Assembly: GCA_030066595.1 (NCBI GenBank)
Contig: JASJBI010000026.1
Span: forward strand, 30,693-62,692
From: Alphaproteobacteria bacterium
Lineage (GTDB): Bacteria; Pseudomonadota; Alphaproteobacteria; JAJFFI01
DNA length: 32,000 nt
Direction: 5' to 3'
Below, piece after piece: positions 5,011 through 18,006 of the stretch; within the stretch, counting starts at the first letter, position 1; each line of letters begins with the position of its first letter. The notes beneath the pieces were generated by a model. The model saw nothing but the letters and a program-made list of their open reading frames with translations, had not been told where the DNA came from and ran no database searches. Position numbers and translations under genes: made by a program.

Positions 5011-6549
5011 ATGGCGCGGGCGCCCCTGACGGTTCTTGTCGTCGCATCGCATACCGGCCAAGCCGAGCGATTTCAGGCCCTTCTCGAACGCCAGGACCCG
5101 ACGCGGATCCGGCTGCGGAGCTGCAGCCGGGCCAGCCAGGTCTTGGTCGAAACGACCGAGAAACAGGTCGACGCCATGGTCGTCGCCTTGGCGTCCGCCG
5201 ACAAGACCGGCGTCATGGACATCGAACGGGTCTGCGTGCTGGTGCCCGAGACGGCGGTTATCGTGCTGACCGAGGTCGAGGACGAGGACCTAGACCGCCA
5301 GCTGGTCCAAGCCGGGGCCCAGGACGTCATCGCCGCCGCCGCGCTCGACTCCCCGGACCTGGTCGCCCGTATCCGGAACGCCGTCGATCGCCAGCGCCAG
5401 ATGGTCGAGCAGGCCACCCGCCGCCATCATCTGGAGGTCGCCAACCAGCGGTTCCGCAGCCTGATCAGCGACCGGTTCCGCAGCCTGGTCATGGACAACG
5501 CCGACGCCATGCTGGTGCTCGACAAGGGCGGCAACACCTGCTTCATCAACCCGGCCGCGGAGACGCTGCTGCGCGACCAGAGCGGCGACCTGATCGGCAG
5601 CCGGTTTGCCAACCTCTCCGATATCGATGAAGAGACCGAGATCGAGGTGCCGCGTGCCGACGGCTCGGTGCTGGTCGCGGCCATGCGCATCATGGACACG
5701 GTTTGGGAGGGCGAGGACGCCTACATCGTCACCCTGCACGACATCACCGAACGCAAGCGTCTCGAGCGGGCCATGCGGGCCGCCAAGCAGACCGCCGAGC
5801 GGGCGAGCAAGATGAAATCCCTGTTCCTCGCCAATATGAGCCACGAGCTGCGCACGCCGTTGAACGCCATCATCGGCTTTGCCGAGCTCATGGAAGCGCA
5901 GGCGTTCGGTCCGCTTGGGCACAAGAAGTATCTCGAATACGCCCGCCACATCACCCAAAGCGGCGGGCACCTTTTGGAGCTGATCAACGGGCTCCTGGAT
6001 CTCTCGAAGGCGGAGGCGGGCAAGCTCGAACTGCGTCGCGAGGAGTTCGATCTCGGCACGGTGATCCGCGGCACGGTCGAGGTCATGGAGGCCCGCGCCC
6101 GCCGCGGCAAGGTCCGTCTGCGCACGGAGCTGCAAGACGAGCCCTTCCGGGTGATGGCCGACCGGCTCAAGATCCGGCAGATCATGCTCAATCTGTTGTC
6201 GAATGCCGTGAAGTTCACGCCCGAGGGCGGCGAGGTGCGGGTTTCGGTCGCCTGCGGCCGCGACAATCAGATCGAGATCCAGGTGATAGACACCGGGATC
6301 GGCATGCCGAGGGATCAGATCCCCAAGGCGTTCGCGGCCTTCAACCAGGTGGAGAACGCCTGGACCAAAAAGCTGGCCGAGGGCAGCGGCCTGGGCCTGG
6401 CGCTCACCAAACGGTTGGTCGAGCTGCACGGCGGCACGATCAAGCTGACCAGCGAGGTGGGCGTCGGCACGACAGCCACGGTGCTGCTGCCCTGCAAGCC
6501 GCAAAGCGGCGCGAAGTCCGAGAACGAGACCCTGCCGGTCACCGCCTAG
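5011..6549 (+). CDS. Sensor histidine kinase with an N-terminal receiver-like (pseudo-receiver) domain, a PAS-like region, HisKA and HATPase_c.
   Basis: The ORF is 512 aa. Motifs present: H-box FLANMSHELRTPLNAIIGFAELM, N-box LLNLLSNAVKFT, DTGIGM, GSGLGLALTKRL. A PAS-like segment reads FRSLVMDNADAMLVLDKGGNTCFINPAAETLL...ITERKRLE. The N-terminus, LTVLVVASHTG...DAMVVALASADKTG...VIVLTE, resembles CheY but lacks the acidic residues. Confidence 0.85.
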   Translation: MARAPLTVLVVASHTGQAERFQALLERQDPTRIRLRSCSRASQVLVETTEKQVDAMVVALASADKTGVMDIERVCVLVPETAVIVLTEVEDEDLDRQLVQAGAQDVIAAAALDSPDLVARIRNAVDRQRQMVEQATRRHHLEVANQRFRSLISDRFRSLVMDNADAMLVLDKGGNTCFINPAAETLLRDQSGDLIGSRFANLSDIDEETEIEVPRADGSVLVAAMRIMDTVWEGEDAYIVTLHDITERKRLERAMRAAKQTAERASKMKSLFLANMSHELRTPLNAIIGFAELMEAQAFGPLGHKKYLEYARHITQSGGHLLELINGLLDLSKAEAGKLELRREEFDLGTVIRGTVEVMEARARRGKVRLRTELQDEPFRVMADRLKIRQIMLNLLSNAVKFTPEGGEVRVSVACGRDNQIEIQVIDTGIGMPRDQIPKAFAAFNQVENAWTKKLAEGSGLGLALTKRLVELHGGTIKLTSEVGVGTTATVLLPCKPQSGAKSENETLPVTA

Positions 6550-6583
6550 CGGGCTCTGGAAATGCGTCTGAGAGCGGCAGCGA

Positions 6584-6681: not shown

Positions 6682-6854
6682 CCCGGATCGTCGCTCAGCT
6701 GCCTGATCTAGAGCACTTTCCGACCATATGGCGTCAATTCTGTTGCGGTTTGGGCGCGGCAGCCCGCCAGGCGCCGTCCGAAACGCGATGCAGCGCATCG
6801 GGTGAGGGCGGGAACGCCGCGGATGCCCGCCCAAACGCAACCCAGTCGGGCCGG

Positions 6855-6941
6855 GGCCTTTTTCGCCATGACGTCGTCGATCGCCTTGCCCGTATGACGG
6901 ATACGCTCTGCGGCAACTTCCTAGTCATGGCGAAAAAAGCC
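6855..6941. repeat. An 18-bp inverted repeat (17/18 match) with a 51-nt spacer.
   Basis: GGCCTTTTTCGCCATGAC (6855..6872) pairs with GTCATGGCGAAAAAAGCC (6924..6941), whose reverse complement is GGCTTTTTTCGCCATGAC. It lies in non-coding DNA at the left edge of the lower-GC insert. Confidence 0.5.
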
Positions 6942-7030
6942 TCCGGCAGAATGGATCCATATGGTCGGAAAATGCATTAGGCGCCTCCGGGAATCGAGAG
7001 ATCCGTTTCACAGATCGTTGATCCGCGTCA

Positions 7031-7273: not shown

Positions 7274-9550
7274 CTAGGCGCGCCGCAGATGATAGGCAGG
7301 CGTCGTGCCGAACGCCTTGGGCAAGGTGAGGTTCCCGACATATTCGAGTGCAATCCCGCCTACGTTCTCCGCCGTGGCAACCGCCGCAAAAGACTCGCTG
7401 ACATAGACATTTCCAGGCGGAGTCACGGGTTCGATCCGAGCCGCCCGGTTGACGTAAGCGCCGCAGTACGTGACGCCGCCGGTAACGGGATCCGGCTGCG
7501 CGTGCACCGGCCCACAATCTATGGACAGCCGCAGACCGAGATGACGGGCGAGCCCCACGGCTGCCCAGTCAAGCGCATCGAAGCGATCGCGCAAATCCAA
7601 CCCGAACCGACAAGCCGACCGCACATCGGCCAGCACAAAGAAAAGACCGTCCCCAGTCGTACGACGATGAAGAACCGAAGCATCGTATTTCTGTGCGACT
7701 TCAGCCACGGGCCGCAAGAAGTGAGTCATGAAGTCCGGCAGAAGATGATCCGGGAGATCGCTGTAACCGCTCGTGTCAGCGAACAGCATTGCCCGGATTC
7801 GCCGTGCGCTTGCCAGGTCGCTTTCGGGTTCGAGGCCCGACGTGGCAGATTGCGAGACGTCTGTCTTGGTTGCGTTCGAGCGGTTGCCGATCGGGTGGAC
7901 TTTGCGGCCTTCACGATGCCACAGATCTGGCAACGACGCGGCGGGACCAGGACGGATTTCACCGGCAAGCGAGATCCTTTCTACGACAGTCGAGAGCGAC
8001 CGAGCCCGCAGAGCCGCTAGGCCGTCCGCGTGGAGGTCGGCAAAGTACTGAGCCTCGACCAGGCCCTGCGGTTCGAAATCACACAGGGCCAGAACGCGTG
8101 CCGCATCTGAGACAAGTCGATCGAAGCGCTCGGCCCACTGATTGCCGAGCGCTCGGCGAATCCAGGACTCCTTGAAGACCTCTGCCGGATAGGGGAGCAC
8201 CACATTGATCTCCGCGTCCTGGCGGTTCAGTTCCTCAAGAAAAAGAAGTTCGGCGACGCTTGCCGCCGAAGCATATCCGACGGACGCGCCGAGTCCGTCC
8301 AGACACCTGGCGATCTCATCAGCCAAGGCGCTTTCCGACATGTCCGACTGAGTGATCTCGCCCTCTTGTTCTGCTCTCCACGAGCCAAAGACCACGCAGG
8401 ACGGCGCGGGTATGAGTTCCTCAACACGCAAGTCGATGTCGCCGGTGTGATCCAGGACAAGCGCGGCTTGGCGACGGCTAGCGCCAAGGTCACGGTCCCG
8501 CCGTTGACCACGCGCCGCGCGCGCCGCGAGCCCGTAGTACTTCCTGCTTCGTGCTTCATCCCGCTGGATCAGCGCTGCCTCCCCCAGTGTCGCCAGCGGC
8601 CAGTAGTGGTCCTGATGAGCATCCTCCGCGTTGAGTTGCTCTTCACAAATAACCTCCACCTCCCGAGCAAGACGCTGAGCCAGATCTGCGTCTGCGCTTA
8701 GGAGAGCTGTCATAGCGGCGTTGATGCCGTTGTAGGAGGCGTGGTCCAGCCGACCTTCCTTTCGGGCGTTCTTGTAGGCGCCGAGATAGGCGCTATGCGC
8801 CTTTCTCATCTGGCCGGTACGTTGGTCCTGATCCTGCGCGCTGAGTGCGAGCTCCTTGAACGTGCGACCGAGCAGCCCAAGGGTCTCTCCGTCCCGCAGC
8901 CCTTGTTGGTGCAGACCCGTCAGGATCGCATGCGCGGGCATCAGGGCACCGCACTGGATGAGCGCAAGGCCCATCAACTGATTGAGCCGGAGCGCAAGGT
9001 CCCGTTCGTCTTTGGCGAGCTGATCCAGTCTCGCACCTGCCGGAAAGTGGGCCAGCCCCTCGGCGGCGACGTCATATGCGAACAATGGATCGATCCGCAC
9101 GGCCCGCTCGGTCAGGTCTCGGTACAGACGGGGATGGCTGGACCAAAGATCGTGGTCACGATGCAGCCATACACTTCGCAGGTTCGCCGACGTGGCGCGG
9201 CGAGGATCACTCAGGATCTCAGTGATGTCTTGCGGTTCGGCGCCGGCAGCTGGTAGCCGGTTGCCTTGGCCAGGGTTGATCTCGAAGCCCAACGCGAGAA
9301 CCGCCTTGAGTGTCTCTGACGCGCTTTGCAGATCGTATTCCTTCTCGGAGTCCGGCAGTTCGCTGAACTCGATCAGGTTTGGGTGTGTCTTTTGGTCTTG
9401 GTTGCGATCCGTACCGTGACGCCAACCCTCGGCAAGCCGTCTGGCGGCCCAAACGTCGTGCAAATGGCGCGCCAGCTCCGCAAGCCGCCGCTCCAGGGAT
9501 TCATCGAGCTCAATCTCCGACGTGTCTATCGGTGTCGGACGATAACCCAT
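7274..9550 (-). CDS. Multidomain signalling protein: RyR domain + DUF4071/MAP3K-TRAF-binding-like TPR region + Rossmann/SLOG-like module + class III adenylate/guanylate-type nucleotidyl cyclase.
   Basis: The track ORF is 7274..9661. I place the start at ATG 9550 (MGYRPTPID), because the upstream 37 codons are an Arg/Ser/Pro-rich extension. Domain motifs are listed in the four sub-features that follow. Confidence 0.85.
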   Translation of the reverse strand: MGYRPTPIDTSEIELDESLERRLAELARHLHDVWAARRLAEGWRHGTDRNQDQKTHPNLIEFSELPDSEKEYDLQSASETLKAVLALGFEINPGQGNRLPAAGAEPQDITEILSDPRRATSANLRSVWLHRDHDLWSSHPRLYRDLTERAVRIDPLFAYDVAAEGLAHFPAGARLDQLAKDERDLALRLNQLMGLALIQCGALMPAHAILTGLHQQGLRDGETLGLLGRTFKELALSAQDQDQRTGQMRKAHSAYLGAYKNARKEGRLDHASYNGINAAMTALLSADADLAQRLAREVEVICEEQLNAEDAHQDHYWPLATLGEAALIQRDEARSRKYYGLAARAARGQRRDRDLGASRRQAALVLDHTGDIDLRVEELIPAPSCVVFGSWRAEQEGEITQSDMSESALADEIARCLDGLGASVGYASAASVAELLFLEELNRQDAEINVVLPYPAEVFKESWIRRALGNQWAERFDRLVSDAARVLALCDFEPQGLVEAQYFADLHADGLAALRARSLSTVVERISLAGEIRPGPAASLPDLWHREGRKVHPIGNRSNATKTDVSQSATSGLEPESDLASARRIRAMLFADTSGYSDLPDHLLPDFMTHFLRPVAEVAQKYDASVLHRRTTGDGLFFVLADVRSACRFGLDLRDRFDALDWAAVGLARHLGLRLSIDCGPVHAQPDPVTGGVTYCGAYVNRAARIEPVTPPGNVYVSESFAAVATAENVGGIALEYVGNLTLPKAFGTTPAYHLRRA
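7292..7804 (-). other. Class III nucleotidyl cyclase catalytic domain.
   Basis: The first metal Asp is in MLFADTSGYS (nt 7760..7789). The second metal Asp is in TTGDGLFF (7637..7660). The transition-state Asn/Arg pair is in YVNRAARIE (7430..7456), followed by PGNVYVSESF. Confidence 0.8.
7967..8410 (-). other. Rossmann-like (SLOG/LOG-like?) module.
   Basis: The segment reads CVVFGSWRAEQEG...LGASVGYASAASVAELLFLEELNRQDAEINVVLPYPAEVFKES. It resembles a recurring G-x-A-x-GAD-x-LF-x-E...VVLPF module found upstream of cyclase domains in other bacterial proteins (from memory). Here the GAD is degenerate (SVA). Confidence 0.35.
8417..9214 (-). other. DUF4071 / MAP3K TRAF-binding-like helical (TPR-like) region.
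   Basis: The motifs LGLLGRTFKELA and HASYNGINAAMTALL match the GRxYKD and YYPGINAATL signatures that I recall for this family. The surrounding sequence is helical. Confidence 0.5.
9278..9508 (-). other. RyR (ryanodine-receptor repeat, PF02026-like) domain of the cyclase protein.
   Basis: The segment reads LAELARHLHDVWAARRLAEGWRHGTDRNQDQKTHPNLIEFSELPDSEKEYDLQSASETLKAVLALGFEI. It matches the RyR pattern as I remember it: H-x-x-W, a GW-x-x-G motif, HP-x-L-V/I-x-[FY], and L-x-x-x-EK-x-x-D. Confidence 0.7.
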
Positions 9551-9739
9551 GTGCGAGATCCTTCGAGCAGGGGGAGCAGCATAGCAGATCCCCAAAGGCG
9601 AGCGGGCAGCCGGAACAGGCGAGCTGCTGCGTCGTCGACGGCGACCGGCCTGGCGTCTCACATCCGGCGAAATATATCCCGGAGTGGCAGCACTTATGGG
9701 GGCGAAACCAAGCCAATGTCCGTCCGGGTCCCGAATCTA

Positions 9740-9751
9740 GGAAAATTTTCC
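9740..9751. promoter_or_regulatory. Perfect 12-bp palindrome GGAAAATTTTCC in the divergent promoter region.
   Basis: The sequence is its own reverse complement. It lies in the 357-nt gap between the divergent cyclase and RyR mini-protein genes. Confidence 0.3.
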
Positions 9752-9839
9752 AAATCATGTGGAATCTGGCCTATACGTCTCTCCGTTGATTGCCGCAAGA
9801 AACGGCTCGCTGGCAGAGACGTGTGACTTTCAACACATT

Positions 9840-9855
9840 CATTGGATTTCCAATG
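9840..9855. promoter_or_regulatory. Inverted repeat CATTGGA-TT-TCCAATG upstream of the RyR mini-gene.
   Basis: It has 7-bp arms and a 2-nt centre. It ends 52 nt upstream of ATG 9908. Confidence 0.3.
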
Positions 9856-9907
9856 ACTAGGATTGCAACCATGTCCCACGTCTCAACAGTGCCGACTGGA
9901 TGGATAC

Positions 9908-10201
9908 ATGGCTCCCAAAAGCAAAGACCGCCTCGATACCAATGCGGTCGAACTCAACCAGCAATTCCTGGGATACGTCGAGGTGCTCGCCGCCCATATC
10001 CACCACAATTGGCTCGAGCGACGCGTGGCTGAAGGATGGGGACCTGGCAAGCAGCGGAATGACGACCGTATGACCCATCCGTGCATCAAACCGTACTCGG
10101 CGCTGCCGGAAAGCGAAAAAGAGTACGACCGGGAATCGGCGAGAGAAACGTTGAAAGCCTTGCTGGCCTTGGGATGCCGGATCACCGGCCCGGCCGGCTA
10201 G
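9908..10201 (+). CDS. Stand-alone RyR-domain protein (97 aa).
   Basis: The track ORF 9863..10201 starts at a TTG. I prefer ATG 9908 (MAPKSKDRLD...). The protein reads VEVLAAHIHHNWLERRVAEGWGPGKQRNDDRMTHPCIKPYSALPESEKEYDRESARETLKALLALGCRI, which aligns colinearly with the RyR domain of the neighbouring cyclase protein. Confidence 0.75.
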   Translation: MAPKSKDRLDTNAVELNQQFLGYVEVLAAHIHHNWLERRVAEGWGPGKQRNDDRMTHPCIKPYSALPESEKEYDRESARETLKALLALGCRITGPAG

Positions 10202-10289
10202 CTTCGTGAGCCCGTAGCGGACGCGCTGCCGCCTCCGGGCCGGTCAACTGGCAAGCCGCGACGCCGCGGATTTCAGGGCACGCCGGCAG

Positions 10290-12209
10290 CTATTCGAATA
10301 TCGCGAGGCAGGCGTCAAACAGATGCTCGTCGTGACGATCCAGGGATGGCCGCCGCGAAGCCTGGCCCTTGATACCTTCGAGGACCGACTGAATGAGCTC
10401 CTGGTCGTGGCTGGGCTCCTGAAATGCGTCTTGCATCATCAGCAGAGCGGTCACGCTGTCACGAAGCAGGCTCGGAAAGTGCCGCTCTTGAACGAGACTC
10501 TGGAATTCGGCAAGGGCCCTGTCTGCCAGCTTCTTCCGTTCACGTTCTCCCTGGCAAATGGCCAGTCCCACCAGCGCGGTCGCCTGCGCGTAGCGCAGCT
10601 CAATGGTCCGATGCCGGTCGTTTGAACCGGCCTCCTTCAACCCTTTTCGACAGTAATCCGCCGCCGCTTTGAAGGCTTTCTTCGCGTTCGTAAGGCCGTA
10701 CGCAGCCGCGCCATAGGCCTCGCTCTCCCTGAGCAACACGATTCCCATCAGCAGTTCCGGTGGCCAGGCAACAGCAAGCGCGTCCTTTCTTGTTGCATCG
10801 AGCAATGCCTTGGGAGGTTTTGGAAACTCGGCTGCAGGAGCGTCCTGTTCGAGCACGAGTCGTGTGCACTCGAGCCAGTGATAATAGTCTTCCCAGAGAC
10901 CGTCACCGCTGCGCTCGTCCTTGATATAGCCTTTCGGCGCAGTCTCATGGGCGCTGCGATGGTACGTCTCAGCGAGCTCAAGCGAGTTCTTTCGCTCGAC
11001 TCGCTTGTCGAGGCAGGAATAGACACGCGACAGCTCTCGATGCACGTTCCCCAGGCGCCTGAGAGAAGTTGCCCGTCTCTTGTGATCGTTACCGCGTTCA
11101 GCCAGTGAAGCTGCTCTGTCATAGAAGTTGATCGCAGACTGGAAATGCATTGCGGCGGCGGCGCAATCGTCCGCGAGGAATGAATCCCATCCGAGATCGC
11201 GACTGGCATTGCCGAGGCGCGCCAGAGTGATCTGCTCGCCCCTTCGATTGCCTATTTCCCGCTGGCTTTCCAAAGCCAACCTGTAGATACGGTCGGCCTT
11301 CTGGGCAAAACCACGGTCGCGCAAAAAGCTTGCGATGTTTCCGGGCAGCAACCCTCTGCCCCAGCGCCCATGCCTGAACTCGCTGAAGATCTCTAAGGCT
11401 CTTGAGAAGTTCTTCCGCGCGTCGTCCCACTGACCCAGCTTGCCGGACGCCCGCGCCAGGTCTGCATAGGCCAAGCCCCAATTCGGCCGAATGCTGATCT
11501 GCTCTCGCGGATCCCCATCCTCTTGCTGTTTGTTCCACTCTTCGAATTTCTCTACACCGGAGCAAAAATCATCGAAAGCACCCTTGGTGTCATAGTAGTA
11601 ATCGAGCTTCAGCCATCCGATTTCGTTTTGCCAGAGAGCTTCCTGCCAGTTGGCTCTCTTGCGCTCGTTCCTGACACCTTTAGCGATCTTGAGCGCTTCC
11701 TCCAGGTCCTGTCTTCCGCTGGCAATATCGCCTTGATAAGCCCTGCTCCATCCCAGGTAGCCGCACCACGTGCTCTCCTGTTCTCTCCAGCTTATCAAGT
11801 CGGGGTCCTCTTGCCCGTTTGCCTTGGACCTCTTGCGTGCGATCTTGAGGTACTCTGACGCCTTCTTAGGCCGCCCAACAAACAGGTAGGCGAGGCCAAG
11901 CCCGCCCTGATTGGCAACCTCGGCGGATGACGAGACTGGTTGCGAGCACGTCTCGTCCGCGAGTCTCTCCACAAGCTGGGTTCGCATTTCGATCAGTGCC
12001 TGGAGATAGCCCCAGGAAAGCAGATGGCTTGCGATGTCTTCGAGCGCCTGGCAAGCGCTTCGGCAATCGCCAGCGGACATCCGATGTTGGAACTCACTAA
12101 GCTGAGGCTCGACATCGTCGATGCTGTTCCACGTCTCGGGACTGGTGCGCAGTCTCAAGAAGTATTCCGCGGCAAGGCTCTCCAAGGTCGGCTGATTGTA
12201 GTTAGGCAT
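10290..12209 (-). CDS. All-helical TPR-like repeat protein (639 aa), probably the sensor arm of the upstream STAND NTPase.
   Basis: This is the only long ORF across the span. It contains repeated TPR-like A/G/Y/W-spaced helices, for example GLAYLFVGRPKKASEYLKIA, GLAYADLARASGKLGQWDDARKNFSRALEIF and LARLGNASRDLGWDS...AAAMHFQSAINFY. I see no enzymatic motif. The start is 17 nt after the stop of the NB-ARC gene on the same strand. Confidence 0.75.
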   Translation of the reverse strand: MPNYNQPTLESLAAEYFLRLRTSPETWNSIDDVEPQLSEFQHRMSAGDCRSACQALEDIASHLLSWGYLQALIEMRTQLVERLADETCSQPVSSSAEVANQGGLGLAYLFVGRPKKASEYLKIARKRSKANGQEDPDLISWREQESTWCGYLGWSRAYQGDIASGRQDLEEALKIAKGVRNERKRANWQEALWQNEIGWLKLDYYYDTKGAFDDFCSGVEKFEEWNKQQEDGDPREQISIRPNWGLAYADLARASGKLGQWDDARKNFSRALEIFSEFRHGRWGRGLLPGNIASFLRDRGFAQKADRIYRLALESQREIGNRRGEQITLARLGNASRDLGWDSFLADDCAAAAMHFQSAINFYDRAASLAERGNDHKRRATSLRRLGNVHRELSRVYSCLDKRVERKNSLELAETYHRSAHETAPKGYIKDERSGDGLWEDYYHWLECTRLVLEQDAPAAEFPKPPKALLDATRKDALAVAWPPELLMGIVLLRESEAYGAAAYGLTNAKKAFKAAADYCRKGLKEAGSNDRHRTIELRYAQATALVGLAICQGERERKKLADRALAEFQSLVQERHFPSLLRDSVTALLMMQDAFQEPSHDQELIQSVLEGIKGQASRRPSLDRHDEHLFDACLAIFE

Positions 12210-12226
12210 CGGTCGTTCCCATCGTC

Positions 12227-13843
12227 CTACGCTCTCTGGGGGATTTGGCCATAGGCATACTCCCGGTCGAGCGCGTGCAGGCTGTATTGGCGCGTGGCCG
12301 CGTTCATTTGCACGAAATGGCCGTTGACCAGCCGCCGCAGAGACGCGCGAACGTCCAGAGCGGGCAAGAAGGGCTGGGTCAGATAGGCGATCGCCGTTTC
12401 GTCAACCTGATCGTTAAAGACGGCGAGCGCCTCCATGACGCGTTTCTCGGGTTCTTCGAGGCGTCGGTACCCGGCGGCGACCAGAGGTTCCATAACCCCG
12501 GCGCTGAATACGGCTCTGTCCGCCAAGACTTCAGACAGATCGGTCGTCGGATCCTCGTACAACAGACCCGCGAGGATCTCGAGCGCCCGGGGTATGCCCT
12601 GCGTCAGTTTGGCCGCACGTCGCAGGTCGGCCTCCTTGGCGCTGCGCAGGCCAAGCAATCCCTGCGGATCCAGGTCACGCAACAGCTCGACCGCCTCGTC
12701 CTCGCCGAGCCCCTCGCTCAACGAGATCGTCCGCGTGGTTCGCAAGGCGGCGGCGGGCAGCCTCAGCTTCTCCTGCGACGTCACGATCAGCTTCGCGCCG
12801 CTCGGCTTGGTCACGCACTGCTCGACAAAGGCCCGAAGGCCTTTGTCCCGGATCGTGCCGTCCGCCTCCAGCTCGTCCTCGAAATTGTCCATGAGAAAGA
12901 CGTATGTGCCATCCGCCATGACCTCGATCAGGTATTCGGCCTTGGCGGCCAATGACATGGTCGTGTTGACCCAGCGGGCGGCGAGGCTGTCGGCGACCGG
13001 TCTTTCCAGGATCTTGGCGAGGTCCGAATAAAGCCGCTCCAGGGTTATCCGCGTGTTCTGGGCGCTCAGATAGACAATGCCGTTGATCGGGAGGCTGGCG
13101 CCGTTGCCGCGGACTGACATCTCGCCCTGTTCCAGTTCGGCCAGGAGGCGCGTGGCCAGGGCCGTCTTGCCCATACCCCCTCGGCCCAGAACGCTCACCA
13201 TGTGCACGCCGCCATCCAACAGATAGTCTCGGAGTTCCTCTTGTTCCCTTTCGCGGCCCTTGAACGTGTCCACAACATCCAGCGGCCGGACATTCACAAC
13301 GCCATGGCTGTGATGTTGGCGCCCACCCTGGGTCCCGAAGCGGATCTTGCTTTCCTTGAAGGCATCCAAGGAGCAGTCCAACTGCTCCTGCGTCCACTGC
13401 GCGATCGACGCGACCACCTGTTCCGCGAAATCCTTTTCATCCTTGAAGAAATGAACGACATGCGAATTGCAGAGCTCATGGCGCCACGCCGCAATCTTCT
13501 CGTGCTCCGAACCACGATCCACACATTCGGGATCCCAACGCACTTTCTGATCAAGCATGAAGATGAACCGCGCGAGTCCGGATCGGCATGCCTGCTGGTA
13601 TTCAAGCTCGGTGATGGAGCGTTCTTGGTCGGTCGGAATGTGTCCGTAATGCCAGGCAACGATCCCGATATAGACTTGGCAGGCGGCGACGTCGGCGAGA
13701 CATACGTCGAGCGGCCGCCCATCCTTGGCGGGGTAGTCTTCCATCGCTACGACGTCGTGTCGCATGCTCCTGAGAAAGTCATAGGCGGCCTGGCGATACT
13801 CTTGGAGATCGCTATACGTGGACGAAATGTAGATCTTCGCCAT
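12227..13843 (-). CDS. DUF4062 (TIR-like) + NB-ARC STAND P-loop NTPase (538 aa).
   Basis: The N-terminus is MAKIYISSTYSDLQEYRQAAYDFL...MEDYPA...CQVYIGIVAWHYGH...SITELEYQQA...FIFML, the DUF4062 pattern. Walker A is GRGGMGKT (nt 13163..13186) and Walker B is VFLMDNFED. Also present are LIVTSQ, the GxP motif TQGIPRALEILAG, and the MHD-like YSLHALDREYA 12 residues before the stop. Confidence 0.85.
   Translation of the reverse strand: MAKIYISSTYSDLQEYRQAAYDFLRSMRHDVVAMEDYPAKDGRPLDVCLADVAACQVYIGIVAWHYGHIPTDQERSITELEYQQACRSGLARFIFMLDQKVRWDPECVDRGSEHEKIAAWRHELCNSHVVHFFKDEKDFAEQVVASIAQWTQEQLDCSLDAFKESKIRFGTQGGRQHHSHGVVNVRPLDVVDTFKGREREQEELRDYLLDGGVHMVSVLGRGGMGKTALATRLLAELEQGEMSVRGNGASLPINGIVYLSAQNTRITLERLYSDLAKILERPVADSLAARWVNTTMSLAAKAEYLIEVMADGTYVFLMDNFEDELEADGTIRDKGLRAFVEQCVTKPSGAKLIVTSQEKLRLPAAALRTTRTISLSEGLGEDEAVELLRDLDPQGLLGLRSAKEADLRRAAKLTQGIPRALEILAGLLYEDPTTDLSEVLADRAVFSAGVMEPLVAAGYRRLEEPEKRVMEALAVFNDQVDETAIAYLTQPFLPALDVRASLRRLVNGHFVQMNAATRQYSLHALDREYAYGQIPQRA
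13394..13837 (-). other. DUF4062 / TIR-like putative effector domain of the STAND protein.
   Basis: This covers residues about 3-150 of the 538-aa protein; motifs are given in the parent feature. The assignment of DUF4062 to a TIR-like or nucleoside-deoxyribosyltransferase-like fold is from memory of the comparative-genomics literature. Confidence 0.55.
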
Positions 13844-14355
13844 TCGAGCCAGGCCTGCTTCGCGCTTGGTTCCGCAGGCGACCGGAACGTAGGGACGTCC
13901 GGTCGAAGCGTGTATTCACGCACGCAAGCGGGTTGGTCGCTACTCCTCTTGATTGGGCGGTCGCTCTCAGACTTATGCCCAATCTACCCTGCAATAAGAT
14001 TCAATCCAACTTACGCAATTCTTGCAACGTTAATGTGCGTTTTCTCACGATTCCGCCCGGTAACTCAAAAGCGATGGCCAAAAGACATCGATCGGCTCTT
14101 TGACAGTGTTGCAAGGGCTGAGGCGCGTTAGGCGCAGTCCTTCCTGCGGTCCTCAACTATATTTGGATCAACAGACGCGGCTCGCCCTCTTGCAGCGGGC
14201 GCTCGGCTTCAGCCGAGGGGACGCCGTTGGCGCCAGAGCCCAGGACCGTTCGCCTGGGGCTGTATCTCCGACTCGGTGCCGGCCATGTCTTCACGGCAGC
14301 CTCTGACCTTGAGCCGACATAAGGCGCGCCCAAGCAGACGCTCATCGCAATCAGG

Positions 14356-14997
14356 TTATCGTTCTGCTATCGCCAGTCTGAGCGCGAGGCCGGTGAACAC
14401 GAGCCCCGCCATCCGGTTCAGGATGAGCTGGGCCCGGGACGATGCTCTTAGCTTTTCGCCCAGAAGGCCCGAGAACCACGCGATTGATCCGAACACCAGC
14501 AGGGTGACGACGATAAACACGGCGCCGAAAGCAATGAGCTGCACAGTCAAGGAGCCGCGTGACGGATCAGCAAACTGCGGCAGGAAAGCGAGAAAGAAGA
14601 TCGCAACCTTCGGGTTGGTGATGTTCATAATCACGCCACGCGCATAGAGCTTTCCGCTGTGGATTCCGGCGCCGCCCTCTTCTGGAATTGACGTCGTTCC
14701 TGCCCGGAATGCCTGCCAAGCCAGATACAACAGGTAGGCGGCGCCTACGATCTTCAGCGCGGTGAACGCCAGGGCGGATGTCGCGAATATTGCCGCGACA
14801 CCGAAGGCGACGGCGATCGTGTGAACCAGCAGTCCCGTGGCGAGGCCGATCGTCACGAACAGCCCGGCGAGCCGGCCGTGCAGGGCAGACTGGGTCAGGA
14901 CAAAGATGTTGTCGGGTCCCGGCGCGAACGCCAAGGCAATCGAAGCTGCGGCGAAGACCGTCAAGGTCTCAATGGGAATTTGCAACAGGCTCATCAT
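14356..14997 (-). CDS. LysE/RhtB-family amino-acid efflux translocator.
   Basis: The ORF is 213 aa and polytopic. The N-terminal signature is AAASIALAFAPGPDNIFVLTQSALHGRLAG. The overall pattern of about six hydrophobic segments is typical of LysE/RhtB proteins. Confidence 0.85.
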   Translation of the reverse strand: MMSLLQIPIETLTVFAAASIALAFAPGPDNIFVLTQSALHGRLAGLFVTIGLATGLLVHTIAVAFGVAAIFATSALAFTALKIVGAAYLLYLAWQAFRAGTTSIPEEGGAGIHSGKLYARGVIMNITNPKVAIFFLAFLPQFADPSRGSLTVQLIAFGAVFIVVTLLVFGSIAWFSGLLGEKLRASSRAQLILNRMAGLVFTGLALRLAIAER

Positions 14998-15095
14998 GGG
15001 TGGTTGTCCGTTCCTCGGCGCCGGCGCATTGCCCGAGCTGTGTGAAACGGGAGTCTCCGGAGCTCTGCGTTGGCGATCGCCCGCGGTGTTTAGGC

Positions 15096-15269
15096 CTAGA
15101 GCGAGCGTGCGGAGTCCCGGATGCTTCTCAACACGGTCGGGGTATCGCCTACCCGTTCCGCAAGCAAGAGCGTCAGCTTGGCCAGGAAGAGCTCGGTCTT
15201 GCTCTCGCCGACCTGATCGATGGTCGTGGCCAGGGCCTCATAGACTGATTCAAGTTCTGTGGGCGTCAT
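15096..15269 (-). CDS. DUF2783-family small protein.
   Basis: From ATG 15269 the protein reads MTPTELESVYEALATTIDQVGESKTELFLAKLTLLLAERVGDTPTVLRSIRDSARSL. Its start overlaps the monooxygenase stop as ATGA (15266..15269). This family is typically coupled to MhpA-like FAD monooxygenases (from memory). Confidence 0.65.
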   Translation of the reverse strand: MTPTELESVYEALATTIDQVGESKTELFLAKLTLLLAERVGDTPTVLRSIRDSARSL

Positions 15270-16900
15270 GCTTCCGCTCCGTTGTTGCAGGTCGCCTTCC
15301 GATACGCTGTTATCACGGACGTCGCACGGGCCTGATGCCACCGTGCCGCGACATGGCGGTCGGGCCGGACCAGGTAAGCGGCGGTTCTTGCCGCCCCGAA
15401 GACGTGCGCCGCCTCCGACCGTGCCGGAAGGGAGAGGACCCGAATGTCGTCCTCGGCAGCCAACCGATCTTCGAGTTCCTGCGCGAGATCGGCACCAAAG
15501 CAGATCACGTTGAACCCCGGGCCGAGGTGGTCAGACAGGTAGCCTTGCTGGAGCCGGGCCTCTGGGATGACCTTGCCTGGTTCCGGACCATTCTCGAATG
15601 CGGGATCGTCGGGGCACACGACCGGGCTTTCGCCATAGGTATAGGGGGTCATCTGCCGCGGATTGGCCAACTTCCCCGCGAAATCGTGATCCAACGCCAG
15701 GGAAAGAGCCGCATCGCGCATCACCCGCCAGCCATGACTGGGTGGCGTCATGAAGCGCGCGCTCTTGGTTGCGTTCTCGAAGACATCCAGCGTTGCGCCG
15801 CGCCGCTCGGGGCTGTAGCTGTCCAGGAGGTCCGTCCCGGCCTTGCCCCGCATGACCCAGCCCAGCTTCCAGGCAATGTTCTGCGCATCCGCCAGGCCGT
15901 TATTGAGCCCGCGAACGCCGAAGATCGGCACGATGTGCGCGCTGTCGCCGATGAAAAACACCCGCCCGTCGCGGTAGTCGTCCAGTGCCAGGGTGTTTGC
16001 CGAATAGATGCTCCACCATTCCAGTTCCCAAGGCCCGTCGTGGCCGATCTCGGACAGGACGGCTTCGACGTTCCTTCGCACGACGTCCTCGCGGGTTGCC
16101 TCGTCGGCGTCCTCGTTCTCCGTCAGCTGGTAGTCGATGCGCCAGATGTTGTCGGGCTGCCGGTGGATCAACACCGTGCCGCCCGGCCGGCAGGCCGGAT
16201 CGAAGAGCGCGCGGCGGATCGTCGGGTAGTCGTGGTTCATCTGAACATCCGCGATCACGTAGCGGCCTTCGTGGTTCTCGCCGGCAAGCCGCCGGCCGAG
16301 CATTCCGCGAACCGGGCTGCGCGCGCCGTCGGCGGCCAGCAGCCAGTCGGCCGCAATCGTATACGTGCCGTTCGTATCGCGGATCGTCAGGATGGCGCCG
16401 TCGCTCGTGTTGCGGACGCCGATGACTTCGCTTTGCCAGCGCGTTTCGATCAGATCGCTGTCTGAGACGGCCTGCCAGAGGTACAGCTCTATGTACTGCT
16501 GTTGTATGTTGTACATCGGCCGAAACTTCTCGGACGGGCCGTCGGGCATATTGAATTCGAGGATCTGCTGCCCGCGATAGAACGAGCGTCCTGTTGTCCA
16601 GCCCAACGCTTTCTCCACAAAGGGCGCGACGGCCCCAAGGCGCTCCAGGATGTAGAAGCTCTCGCGTGCGACGCAGATGGCGCGGCTGCCATCGTTGAAT
16701 GTGGATTTGTTGTCGAACAGGACCGACCTGATGCCCTCCCTCGCCAGGGCCAGCGCCGCCGTCATTCCGACCGGGCCGGCACCGACAATCGCGACAGGCG
16801 TCGGTTCGGACAAAGTGGCACCCCGCGCCTTCTCTGGCGCATCGAAACAGGGATAATCGAAATACAGAGAATCCGTCTCTCCACGCCCGGCGGGTCTCAT
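15266..16900 (-). CDS. FAD-dependent aromatic-ring monooxygenase (MhpA / PheA-TfdB-like).
   Basis: The track ORF is 15266..17062. I place the start at ATG 16900, preceded by GGAGGAAC. Motifs present: VAIVGAGPVGMTAALALAREG, LLAADGARSPVR, FFIGDSAHIVPIFGVRGLNNGLADAQNIAWKL. Confidence 0.85.
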   Translation of the reverse strand: MRPAGRGETDSLYFDYPCFDAPEKARGATLSEPTPVAIVGAGPVGMTAALALAREGIRSVLFDNKSTFNDGSRAICVARESFYILERLGAVAPFVEKALGWTTGRSFYRGQQILEFNMPDGPSEKFRPMYNIQQQYIELYLWQAVSDSDLIETRWQSEVIGVRNTSDGAILTIRDTNGTYTIAADWLLAADGARSPVRGMLGRRLAGENHEGRYVIADVQMNHDYPTIRRALFDPACRPGGTVLIHRQPDNIWRIDYQLTENEDADEATREDVVRRNVEAVLSEIGHDGPWELEWWSIYSANTLALDDYRDGRVFFIGDSAHIVPIFGVRGLNNGLADAQNIAWKLGWVMRGKAGTDLLDSYSPERRGATLDVFENATKSARFMTPPSHGWRVMRDAALSLALDHDFAGKLANPRQMTPYTYGESPVVCPDDPAFENGPEPGKVIPEARLQQGYLSDHLGPGFNVICFGADLAQELEDRLAAEDDIRVLSLPARSEAAHVFGAARTAAYLVRPDRHVAARWHQARATSVITAYRKATCNNGAEA

Positions 16901-17919: not shown

Positions 17920-18006
17920 TGGTGCGGGTGGGGAGACTCGAACTCCCACTTCCTTGCGGAAACCAGATTTTGAGTCTGGCGCGTCTACCAATTCCGCCAC
18001 ACCCGC
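17920..18006 (-). tRNA. tRNA-Leu (anticodon CAA), class II with a long variable arm and encoded CCA.
   Basis: The minus strand reads GCGGGTGTGGCGGAATTGGTAGACGCGCCAGACTCAAAATCTGGTTTCCGCAAGGAAGTGGGAGTTCGAGTCTCCCCACCCGCACCA. The acceptor stem pairs GCGGGTG with CACCCGC. The anticodon stem-loop is CCAGA-CTCAAAA-TCTGG. The T-arm contains GGGAGTTCGAGTCTCCC. Confidence 0.9.

Follow-up and report, generated by a model that had tools for sequence, protein, structure and literature searches.

A RyR-containing class III cyclase family linked to TIR-like genes, and its member beside a split DUF4062-NB-ARC gene pair in an alphaproteobacterial genome

Do four neighbouring genes work as one signalling system, or do they belong to systems that share no more than an address? 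The question is raised by a stretch of 32,000 nucleotides (nt), part of a 100.9-kb contig of an alphaproteobacterial metagenome-assembled genome (hereafter the window; guanine-cytosine (GC) content 64%), in which genes A to D occupy positions 7274-13843 (Table 1). The A protein is composed of a RyR repeat, a TPR-S/DUF4071-like helical array, a predicted SLOG-fold domain and a class III nucleotide cyclase. Gene B encodes a free RyR repeat. D carries a DUF4062 domain (NIR, a TIR-like NADase) joined to an NB-ARC STAND NTPase, and C is a TPR array.

A sequence-only reading of this DNA had taken the four genes for a compositionally distinct block and a candidate uncharacterised conflict system. The block is indeed the lowest-GC stretch of the window (60.4% against 65.2% in the rest), a moderate contrast that extends to third codon positions (GC 0.68-0.77 in the block genes against 0.75-0.90 in flanking genes). 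Every domain that had been named was verified, RyR, TPR-S, DUF4062, NB-ARC and TPR by Pfam, SLOG and cyclase by structural models and Foldseek, and both RyR domains were found, one fused in A and one free in B. The firmest answer concerns the family of A, which shows a strong linkage, conserved at the level of domains only, to TIR-like, STAND and TPR genes. For the window itself we tentatively suggest, as a reading that may well fail, that horizontal transfer brought in the block as a defence islet in which the TIR-like NLR and the nucleotide-relay protein A would cooperate much as the Thoeris proteins do. What was found for the family is stronger and cleaner than the window instance, which is atypical because it is non-operonic, because its SLOG pocket is degenerate and because the partner is a self-sufficient NLR.

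Gene A and the neighbours of its family

The open reading frame (ORF) of A extends to a GTG at 9661. A form of 758 residues, translated from the ATG at 9550, matches a deposited protein (P0001) at 100% identity, and its start agrees with those of the homologues. The N-terminal RyR repeat is of the R12 type, with a profile that matches Repeat12 of RyR1-3 and the bacterial RyR structures 3nrt and 6uag; compared with the PDB, a profile of the whole A alignment (A1) matched none but eukaryotic RyR entries. His31, Trp34, His56 and Asp73 form the pocket set, with a spacing identical to that of H75/W78/H100/D117 in RyDEP, a pocket conserved across PF02026 (PMC13232231). These phage RyR proteins and their homologues bind 2'cADPR/3'cADPR, isomers of cyclic ADP-ribose (cADPR), at nanomolar affinity or cleave them to ADP-ribose (PMC13232231).

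The region behind the repeat is a continuous helical array in the AlphaFold2 model, and A homologues also match PF13281 (DUF4071/MAP3K_TRAF_bd) besides the TPR-S profile. For the middle domain, sequence profiles found no Pfam or PDB match. Search with the domain modelled alone using Foldseek revealed similarity to YpsA (2nx2, E=6e-6, TM 0.56-0.59) and, more weakly, to DprA, ShosA and LOG, which points to a SLOG fold. SLOG is the cADPR receptor of Thoeris ThsA. As RyR and SLOG are both receptors of TIR products, A would carry two such receptor-type domains. The names TPR-S and SLOG probably come from Burroughs et al. 2015 (NAR).

The C-terminal domain scores below the Pfam gathering cut-off for Guanylate_cyc (E=0.0025, 17.9 bits for a cut-off of 21.9). 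Its assignment comes from structure and residues. The full-length AlphaFold2 model is of good quality by its scores (pLDDT 89.4, pTM 0.81), and Foldseek matches the domain to CyaB (3r5g, E=2e-8) and Rv1900c with target TM of 0.75-0.83. The palm fold, the two metal-binding aspartates (Asp592 and Asp634) and the transition-state pair Asn701/Arg705, by which class III cyclases are recognised, are all in place, and Asp592, Asp634 and Arg705 are invariant across the family. At the position of the canonical substrate-specifying lysine stands an arginine in the window protein and an asparagine in the family, so that the cyclase product cannot be read from the sequence.

Word-indexed search retrieved 72 clusters of the A architecture at 33-39% identity. 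Among 185,579 species genomes scanned, 481 relatives were found, in Acidobacteriota, Verrucomicrobiota, Gemmatimonadota, Desulfobacterota, Cyanobacteria, Poribacteria, Planctomycetota, Bipolaricaulia and others (phyla according to record titles). The TPR-S-SLOG core alone comprises 1,941 clusters at 50% identity (exhaustive search, E <= 0.001). Among the best 145 core representatives, 120 are joined to a cyclase; 80 are TPR-S-SLOG-cyclase proteins and 39 add an N-terminal RyR. The TPR-S-SLOG-cyclase family is annotated merely as 'class 3 adenylate cyclase/TPR' and full-text literature searches found no description of the RyR-TPR-S-SLOG-cyclase architecture. The family is apparently undescribed, and the earlier statement that no system was known in which a RyR + DUF4071 + cyclase architecture adjoins a DUF4062-NB-ARC holds for the literature searched.

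Other members of the family carry cNMP_binding, GAF or HD+RyR domains in the RyR slot, and fusions with nSTAND1 and with NB-ARC (cyclase+NB-ARC) also occur; the slot thus accepts either a ligand sensor or a STAND NTPase. Variants of the core with other N-terminal domains include P0223, P0255, P0297, P0307, P0290 and P0239; one variant has a receiver domain replacing the cyclase. P0290 was considered as a Rosetta-stone link between the NB-ARC clade of D and the A core. It shares the P-loop alone with D, so that the fusion argument is valid at the superfamily level only. Seeming 'tandem RyR-RyR' members, which would have supported a pairing of B with A, proved to be artefacts, each being a single RyR with an internal deletion.

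An alignment of 49 family proteins shows that most keep both the RyR and the SLOG pocket. Eighteen, a Pyrinomonadaceae-rich group, lack the RyR H/W/H/D set and keep the SLOG motifs; six, including the window protein, keep the RyR set and have lost the SLOG motifs; none lacks both. This complementary pocket loss is suggestive but not statistically solid. We do not use it as evidence because only about 2 double losses would be expected and because the lineages are related.

Genomic neighbourhoods were counted at species level in the best 80 of the 481 loci. Neighbouring proteins were clustered, the clusters were named with Pfam, and ORFs located 6-10 kb away in the same loci served as background. 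TIR_2 was found on 35 of the 149 ORFs directly flanking A homologues and on at most 2 of 127 distant ORFs (Fisher p <= 1.6e-8), the distant set being dominated by SecDF, dehydrogenases and similar proteins. ThsB_TIR was found in 16 and DUF4062 in 7 of the flanking ORFs. A TIR-cluster or nSTAND1-TPR gene lies at most two genes from A in 42 of the 80 loci. The recurrent partners are a TIR_2+DUF4062 protein of about 500 residues, a ThsB-like TIR of 640-820 residues, a TIR-TPR protein and an nSTAND1-TPR protein, and they often make a three-gene set with A. The order A / TIR_2+DUF4062 / nSTAND1-TPR recurs in Acidobacteriota and Gemmatimonadales (according to record titles); in Desulfobacterota there are TIR-TPR partners, in Bipolaricaulia a TIR-nSTAND1 fusion. 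A hidden Markov model of the DUF4062-like region of the TIR_2+DUF4062 partners matches residues 3-96 of D (E=6.6e-9). A conserved housekeeping context for the cyclase protein, named in the sequence-only reading as an outcome that would speak against it, was not found around the A relatives.

The closest relatives of the window protein, which form its degenerate-SLOG subgroup, are found in loci L089, L090, L092, L043 and L051. In L089 (5275-13117), which holds the closest relative, genes for TIR+FGE-sulfatase, TIR+TPR, A and TIR+NACHT+FGE-sulfatase proteins follow each other with overlapping starts, and this four-gene operon directly adjoins type I restriction-modification genes. Several sensor-TIRs around one receiver is, by analogy, the layout of Thoeris. 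The L090 homologue adjoins an integrase and a D5 primase. In L092 (113-4259), the A homologue overlaps by 8 nt the gene of a 145-residue cNMP-binding protein (cNMP, cyclic mononucleotide), with which it is translationally coupled, and is convergent with the genes for an MshEN+TIR_2 fusion and an M48 peptidase. L043 and L051 (12304-15378; two Verrucomicrobiota genomes) encode an ABC exporter with a C-terminal cNMP-binding domain 48 nt after A. L089 and L092 would be cleaner test loci than the window, L092 for the cyclase output.

The DUF4062-NB-ARC pair, the free RyR and the layout of the block

In D, Glu79 of the DUF4062 domain (motif SITELEY) is conserved in 64 of 74 aligned DUF4062 domains and does not vary among 24 close homologues. 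Equally invariant in close homologues are the Walker A motif GMGKT (G220-x-G-G-x-G-K226-T227) and the Walker B residue D319 of the NTPase. C shows Pfam matches to TPR_12, TPR_2 and TPR_1. Because only 17 nt separate D from C, the two genes must be co-transcribed. Among the 244 homologues of D, some are of about 540 residues and end after the NTPase, others are of 920-940 residues and run into TPRs. In 69 of 80 metagenomic loci of D relatives, a C-like TPR region either follows the D homologue directly or continues it as a fusion; 39 of the 80 loci have several kb of flank. The sole cyclase encoded in these loci is one fused to the NB-ARC protein itself.

Within the NB-ARC clade of D, the N-terminal alternatives are DUF4062, class III cyclase, EAD7, trypsin and TIR; such swapping of the N-terminal effector is a signature of conflict systems. 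The relatives with a class III cyclase as N-terminal domain (P0100-P0106) have 552 residues and are 54-62% identical to D over the NTPase; one comes from Kiloniellales. In another locus (L081), a 60%-identical homologue of D is flanked by two cyclase genes. There, a small ORF after the D-C homologues, expected to encode a RyR like B, turned out to be the end of another cyclase.

DUF4062 is a TIR-like NADase that yields ADP-ribose and nicotinamide (10.64898/2026.09.04.749371; 10.64898/2026.05.01.722283). It serves as effector in Avs2, in other NLR-like proteins and in Swarozyc, Vulcan and Vesta, and its catalytic Glu is essential (10.64898/2026.09.04.749371; 10.64898/2026.05.01.722283). NIR-NLR modules of the D+C type have been shown to defend against phage (2026 preprints 10.64898/2026.09.04.749371, 10.64898/2026.05.01.722283). 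Judged by sequence, D+C is a split member of this NIR-NLR class and thus known in kind. The word 'uncharacterised' does not apply to this pair; it stands for the architecture of A, which is apparently undescribed and has no PADLOC model. D+C departs from the Avs/NLR architecture in having the repeat sensor on a separate gene, C, and not on the same polypeptide as the NTPase, and C presumably retains its sensor function despite the split. PADLOC, which the sequence-only reading had proposed to run, has no model that covers the locus: D matches PDC-S27 at E=0.004 only, C matches a generic TPR model, and neither a curated Avs1-5 model nor one of another defence system is matched. Search of the four proteins against NCBIfam gave nothing useful.

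The ORF of B (9863-10201) opens at a TTG at 9863, on which a 112-residue numbering is based; the deposited 97-residue form (P0193) begins at 9908. Its RyR domain (PF02026, E=2e-26) has the pocket residues His47, Trp50, His72 and Asp89 (112-residue numbering), spaced as in RyDEP. The identity of B is 51% to the RyR of A and 54-56% to other free RyRs; between further free RyR mini-proteins and RyR domains of A homologues it rises to 58%. Phage relatives, found in 94 phage records, are at most 45% identical. B sits in a chromosomal islet among core genes and its nearest relatives are cellular, not phage-encoded. Free RyR mini-proteins like B are also found in other cellular operons. In L086 (4287-6294), a gene for a 563-residue DUF4062 protein is followed, after 23 nt and on the same strand, by that of a 97-residue free RyR, an independent DUF4062 + RyR pairing. 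In L087 (4082-6040), a 652-residue protein encoded after a free RyR gene has a divergent RyR-like segment (residues 548-615), and a TIR_2 protein is encoded 5.7 kb downstream.

The block is bounded by a histidine-kinase gene that ends at 6549 and by a LysE gene (14356-14997), and its flanks are housekeeping genes (histidine kinases, LysE, FAD monooxygenase, DsbB, COQ7). The rest of the 32-kb window contains no further TIR-like, RyR or cyclase domain, D being its sole TIR-like protein. B and C converge, with 88 nt between them, and B and A diverge. A sigma-70 consensus scan of the region between A and B found no match, promoter and terminator consensus scans performed no better than on shuffled sequences, and a search of Rfam gave no match.

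Table 1 Features of the four-gene block (window coordinates)
Feature	Position	Strand	Extent	Description or support
Gene A	7274-9550	minus	758 aa	RyR, TPR-S/DUF4071-like helical array, predicted SLOG-fold domain, class III nucleotide cyclase
A, RyR (R12-type) single repeat	9275-9544	minus	residues 3-92	PF02026 E=1.6e-29
A, TPR-S/DUF4071-like all-helical region	8441-9235	minus	residues ~106-370	PF20308, residues 175-280, E=3.6e-13
A, predicted SLOG-fold domain	7886-8413	minus	residues ~380-555	Foldseek
A, class III nucleotide cyclase	7277-7807	minus	residues 582-758	Foldseek, phmmer alignment to 3mr7 and 3r5g
A-B divergent intergenic region	9551-9907		357 nt	presumed promoters of A and B
Gene B	9908-10201	plus	97 aa	single stand-alone RyR repeat
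Gene C	10290-12209	minus	639 aa	TPR array, putative detached sensor arm of D
Gene D	12227-13843	minus	538 aa	DUF4062 (NIR, TIR-like NADase) and NB-ARC STAND NTPase
D, DUF4062/NIR domain	13589-13837	minus	residues 3-85	PF13271 E=3e-26
D, NB-ARC/AAA_16 NTPase	12551-13264	minus	residues ~194-431	PF00931, PF13191, PF05729 (NACHT)

Several other features surround the genes. The 725-nt gap between the histidine-kinase gene and A holds a 24-nt inverted repeat (6708-6980, 88% complementary, arms 225 nt apart) with a 31-nt inverted repeat nested in it (6842-6954); it could be an element resembling a miniature inverted-repeat transposable element or a regulatory hairpin. The low-GC block is framed almost exactly by an imperfect inverted repeat of 25 nt (6557-6581 / 13957-13981, 76% complementary), which may be due to chance or be the relic of the insertion event. 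A tRNA-Leu(CAA) gene is located about 4 kb past the block (17920-18006, minus strand). No integrase was seen in the window. On the antisense strand of the FAD monooxygenase and histidine-kinase genes run two long ORFs without Pfam match, 14837-16465 (plus strand) and 5290-6504 (minus strand), probably shadow ORFs of the kind common in high-GC DNA.

Joint action of the four genes and its alternatives

The view that the block belongs to a conflict system is supported by context, namely the literature on DUF4062 NADase effectors, the TIR proteins encoded beside A relatives and the restriction-modification genes beside L089. Cooperation between the NLR and A could proceed as follows. The TPR array of C would recognise an invader cue and the NB-ARC domain of D would oligomerise, as in the NLR/Avs precedent. 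The DUF4062/NIR domain, following the activity known for its family, would then cleave NAD+ via Glu79 and release ADP-ribose or a related product, which the His31/Trp34/His56/Asp73 pocket of A may bind. SLOG would be a second candidate receptor in most family members; its pocket is degenerate in the window lineage. Ligand binding would activate the cyclase of A, an obligate dimer, to make a cyclic mononucleotide for a receiver encoded outside the window. B might soak up or cleave the ligand, thereby setting a threshold or ending the signal, or might pair with the single RyR of A. Across the family, TIR-family proteins with their own sensor modules would act as infection sensors and A would read their product via RyR and/or SLOG; a few loci have next to A a cNMP-binding protein that could receive the cyclic-nucleotide messenger. 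The identities of the domains, their conserved residues and the statistical association of A relatives with TIR, STAND and TPR genes are observed; the ligand, the signalling direction and the output are inferred.

A series of observations weighs against such cooperation. No computation fixes the direction of signalling. B lies on the strand opposite to A, C and D, which the sequence-only reading did not state, so that the block makes three transcription units, and B is antisense to the read-through direction of D-C. The SLOG pocket of the window protein is degenerate, the family motifs GHMID, AACGSD and GDGPGGTAS being lost, and the window encodes no cNMP receptor. Neither a C nor a D homologue was found near A relatives in the 80 A loci, nor a separate RyR, except in L066 where it is split off from A's own RyR. 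Conversely, none of the 80 loci of D relatives holds a RyR, TPR-S, SLOG or A-like cyclase. The conserved D-C pairing in the absence of A or B indicates that D+C behaves as a self-sufficient NLR-like system, and the NIR domains characterised so far kill by NAD+ depletion and are not signal generators. The presence of RyR in A-family proteins does not correlate with a TIR neighbour (27 of 70 against 2 of 10, p=0.31). The sequence-only reading had held that an adjacency unique to this genome would speak against it. At the level of orthologues, the adjacency was indeed seen nowhere else among these loci; at the level of domains, the linkage does recur.

Many of these observations would be expected if two independent systems were stacked, which we regard as a strong rival, if somewhat less probable than cooperation. 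D+C would then be a complete split NIR-NLR that senses a phage protein and kills by NAD+ depletion, and A, with B, a separate cNMP signalling system whose usual TIR partner has been lost or is located elsewhere, the adjacency reflecting no more than the clustering of defence genes. The frequency of the D-C pair or fusion without a nearby A-like or RyR gene, the ability of NIR-Avs2, Vulcan and Swarozyc to act alone through NAD+ depletion and the three transcription units among four genes are consistent with this explanation. So are the 38 of 80 A loci that have no TIR or STAND neighbour (by cluster labels), and the identities to the nearest homologues, 39% for A against 64% for D, suggest separate histories. 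Two unrelated systems fit less well with the enrichment of TIR-like genes around A relatives, far over the background, when D is the sole TIR-like protein in 32 kb, and with the homology between the DUF4062 of D and that of the partner proteins of A homologues. The recurrence of DUF4062 beside a free RyR in L086, the cyclase genes flanking the close homologue of D in L081 and the single low-GC block common to all four genes also argue for a connection.

The signalling order might also be the reverse, although we judge this unlikely. A would be the primary sensor through its TPR-S region, RyR and SLOG would be feedback sites, and its cNMP would activate the TIR/NIR executioners (NAD+ depletion) or other effectors, in a Pycsar-like manner. 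Pfam labels TPR-S a 'sensor', known NIR domains are NAD+-depleting effectors, and a cyclase occupies the N-terminal effector position in the NB-ARC clade of D (P0100-P0106). In L092, moreover, a cNMP-binding protein is coupled in translation to A, and the TIR there is part of a fusion with MshEN, a domain that binds cyclic nucleotides. That MshEN-TIR is, however, the sole scanned partner with a recognisable cNMP-binding domain, whereas the TIR partners bear sensor modules of their own (TPR, STAND+TPR, FGE-sulfatase), D too is equipped with a STAND switch and a TPR arm, and RyR and SLOG are known receptors of TIR products. The three differently equipped TIRs around one A in L089 also fit many sensors feeding one receiver. 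Very improbable is a housekeeping cAMP/cGMP signalling protein lying beside an NLR-like gene by chance, with RyR, TPR-S and SLOG as metabolic sensors. Class III cyclases with GAF, cNMP-binding or receiver domains are common in signal transduction, some family members carry such domains, and the flanking genes encode histidine kinases and metabolic proteins. This explanation is disfavoured by the patchy spread of the family across phyla at 33-39% identity, by the low GC and low third-position GC of the block and by the strong TIR enrichment beside the family. Relatives adjoining a restriction-modification system (L089) or an integrase (L090), and the lack of a conserved housekeeping neighbourhood, also speak against it.

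Cooperation between the TIR-like NLR and A remains the reading that we tentatively favour. A broader and more doubtful proposal takes in RyDEP. Cellular RyR and SLOG domains might be the native host receptors of ADP-ribose signals made by TIR/NIR domains, signals that the RyR-TPR-S-SLOG-cyclase family would convert to a cyclic mononucleotide in a two-tier immune cascade. Free host RyRs such as B might be buffers or off-switches, and RyDEP a stolen copy of a host receptor. A host-side role for bacterial RyR has been lacking so far, its only reported function (May 2026) being phage evasion of Thoeris. The link between A and TIR would give it such a role and suggest where phages got their RyR. 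If the coupling is true, TIR signalling gains a cyclase output that ties NAD+-derived to cNMP messengers. The families described here are also candidate models for defence-system finders, which currently miss all four genes.

Comparison with known systems

The D+C pair resembles the NIR-Avs2/NLR-like proteins (Rousset lab, 10.64898/2026.09.04.749371) and Swarozyc (10.64898/2026.05.01.722283) in its order of parts: DUF4062 with its conserved Glu at the N-terminus, then a STAND NTPase and, at the C-terminal end, a putative TPR sensor. Fused relatives of D, of 920-940 residues, also exist, and the effector is swapped within the NB-ARC clade, a hallmark of the class. Unlike these proteins, D+C is split in two genes, its NTPase is of the NB-ARC type and it matches no PADLOC Avs model. 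None of the NIR systems described lies beside RyR and cyclase genes as D+C does in the window.

The locus as a whole is neither Thoeris nor Pycsar nor CBASS. CBASS and Pycsar, the analogies first put forward, are weaker than Thoeris because the SLOG and RyR of A are known binders of TIR-derived ADP-ribose signals. As in Thoeris, TIR-family proteins adjoin a protein with a predicted SLOG fold in the A family, several TIRs surround one candidate receiver in L089, and the receptor-type domains of A are of kinds known to bind cADPR isomers. In contrast to Thoeris, the output domain of A is a class III cyclase and not SIR2, a transmembrane domain or Macro, the protein has an additional TPR-S array and RyR, and the SLOG motifs are lost in the window copy. 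The window has no TIR_2 or ThsB_TIR match, the partner there being a NIR-STAND protein, whereas the loci of A homologues do carry TIR_2/ThsB_TIR; none of the four proteins matches a PADLOC Thoeris model. Pycsar also has a nucleotide cyclase in a defence context, and in L092, L043 and L051 a cNMP-binding protein is encoded directly after the cyclase gene. The cyclase of A differs from Pycsar in lying behind three regulatory domains, in having no cNMP-binding effector in the window and in lacking a match to the PADLOC PycC model.

B and the N-terminus of A share with RyDEP (PMC13232231) a single PF02026 repeat with the full H/W/H/D pocket at identical spacing, and B is likewise a small stand-alone protein. 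B differs in being chromosomal and nearer to cellular RyRs (51-58% identity) than to phage ones (<=45%), and its presumed role would be that of a receptor, buffer or off-switch of the host, and not immune evasion. The NTP-dependent conflict systems of Kaur, Burroughs, Iyer and Aravind (eLife 2020 PMC7159879, eLife 2021 PMC8195603) have in common with the present loci nSTAND1, TIR, a cNMP cyclase as signal generator and FGS/FGE-sulfatase sensors. EAD7, an effector-associated domain, on D relatives and the same soil and 'multicellular' lineages are further likenesses. RyR, DUF4071/TPR-S and DUF4062 are unmentioned in those papers, nor do they describe the A architecture and its linkage to TIR. 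Both the parts and the logic of the present loci are thus familiar; what is new is their combination, in which receptors of TIR products would drive a cyclase.

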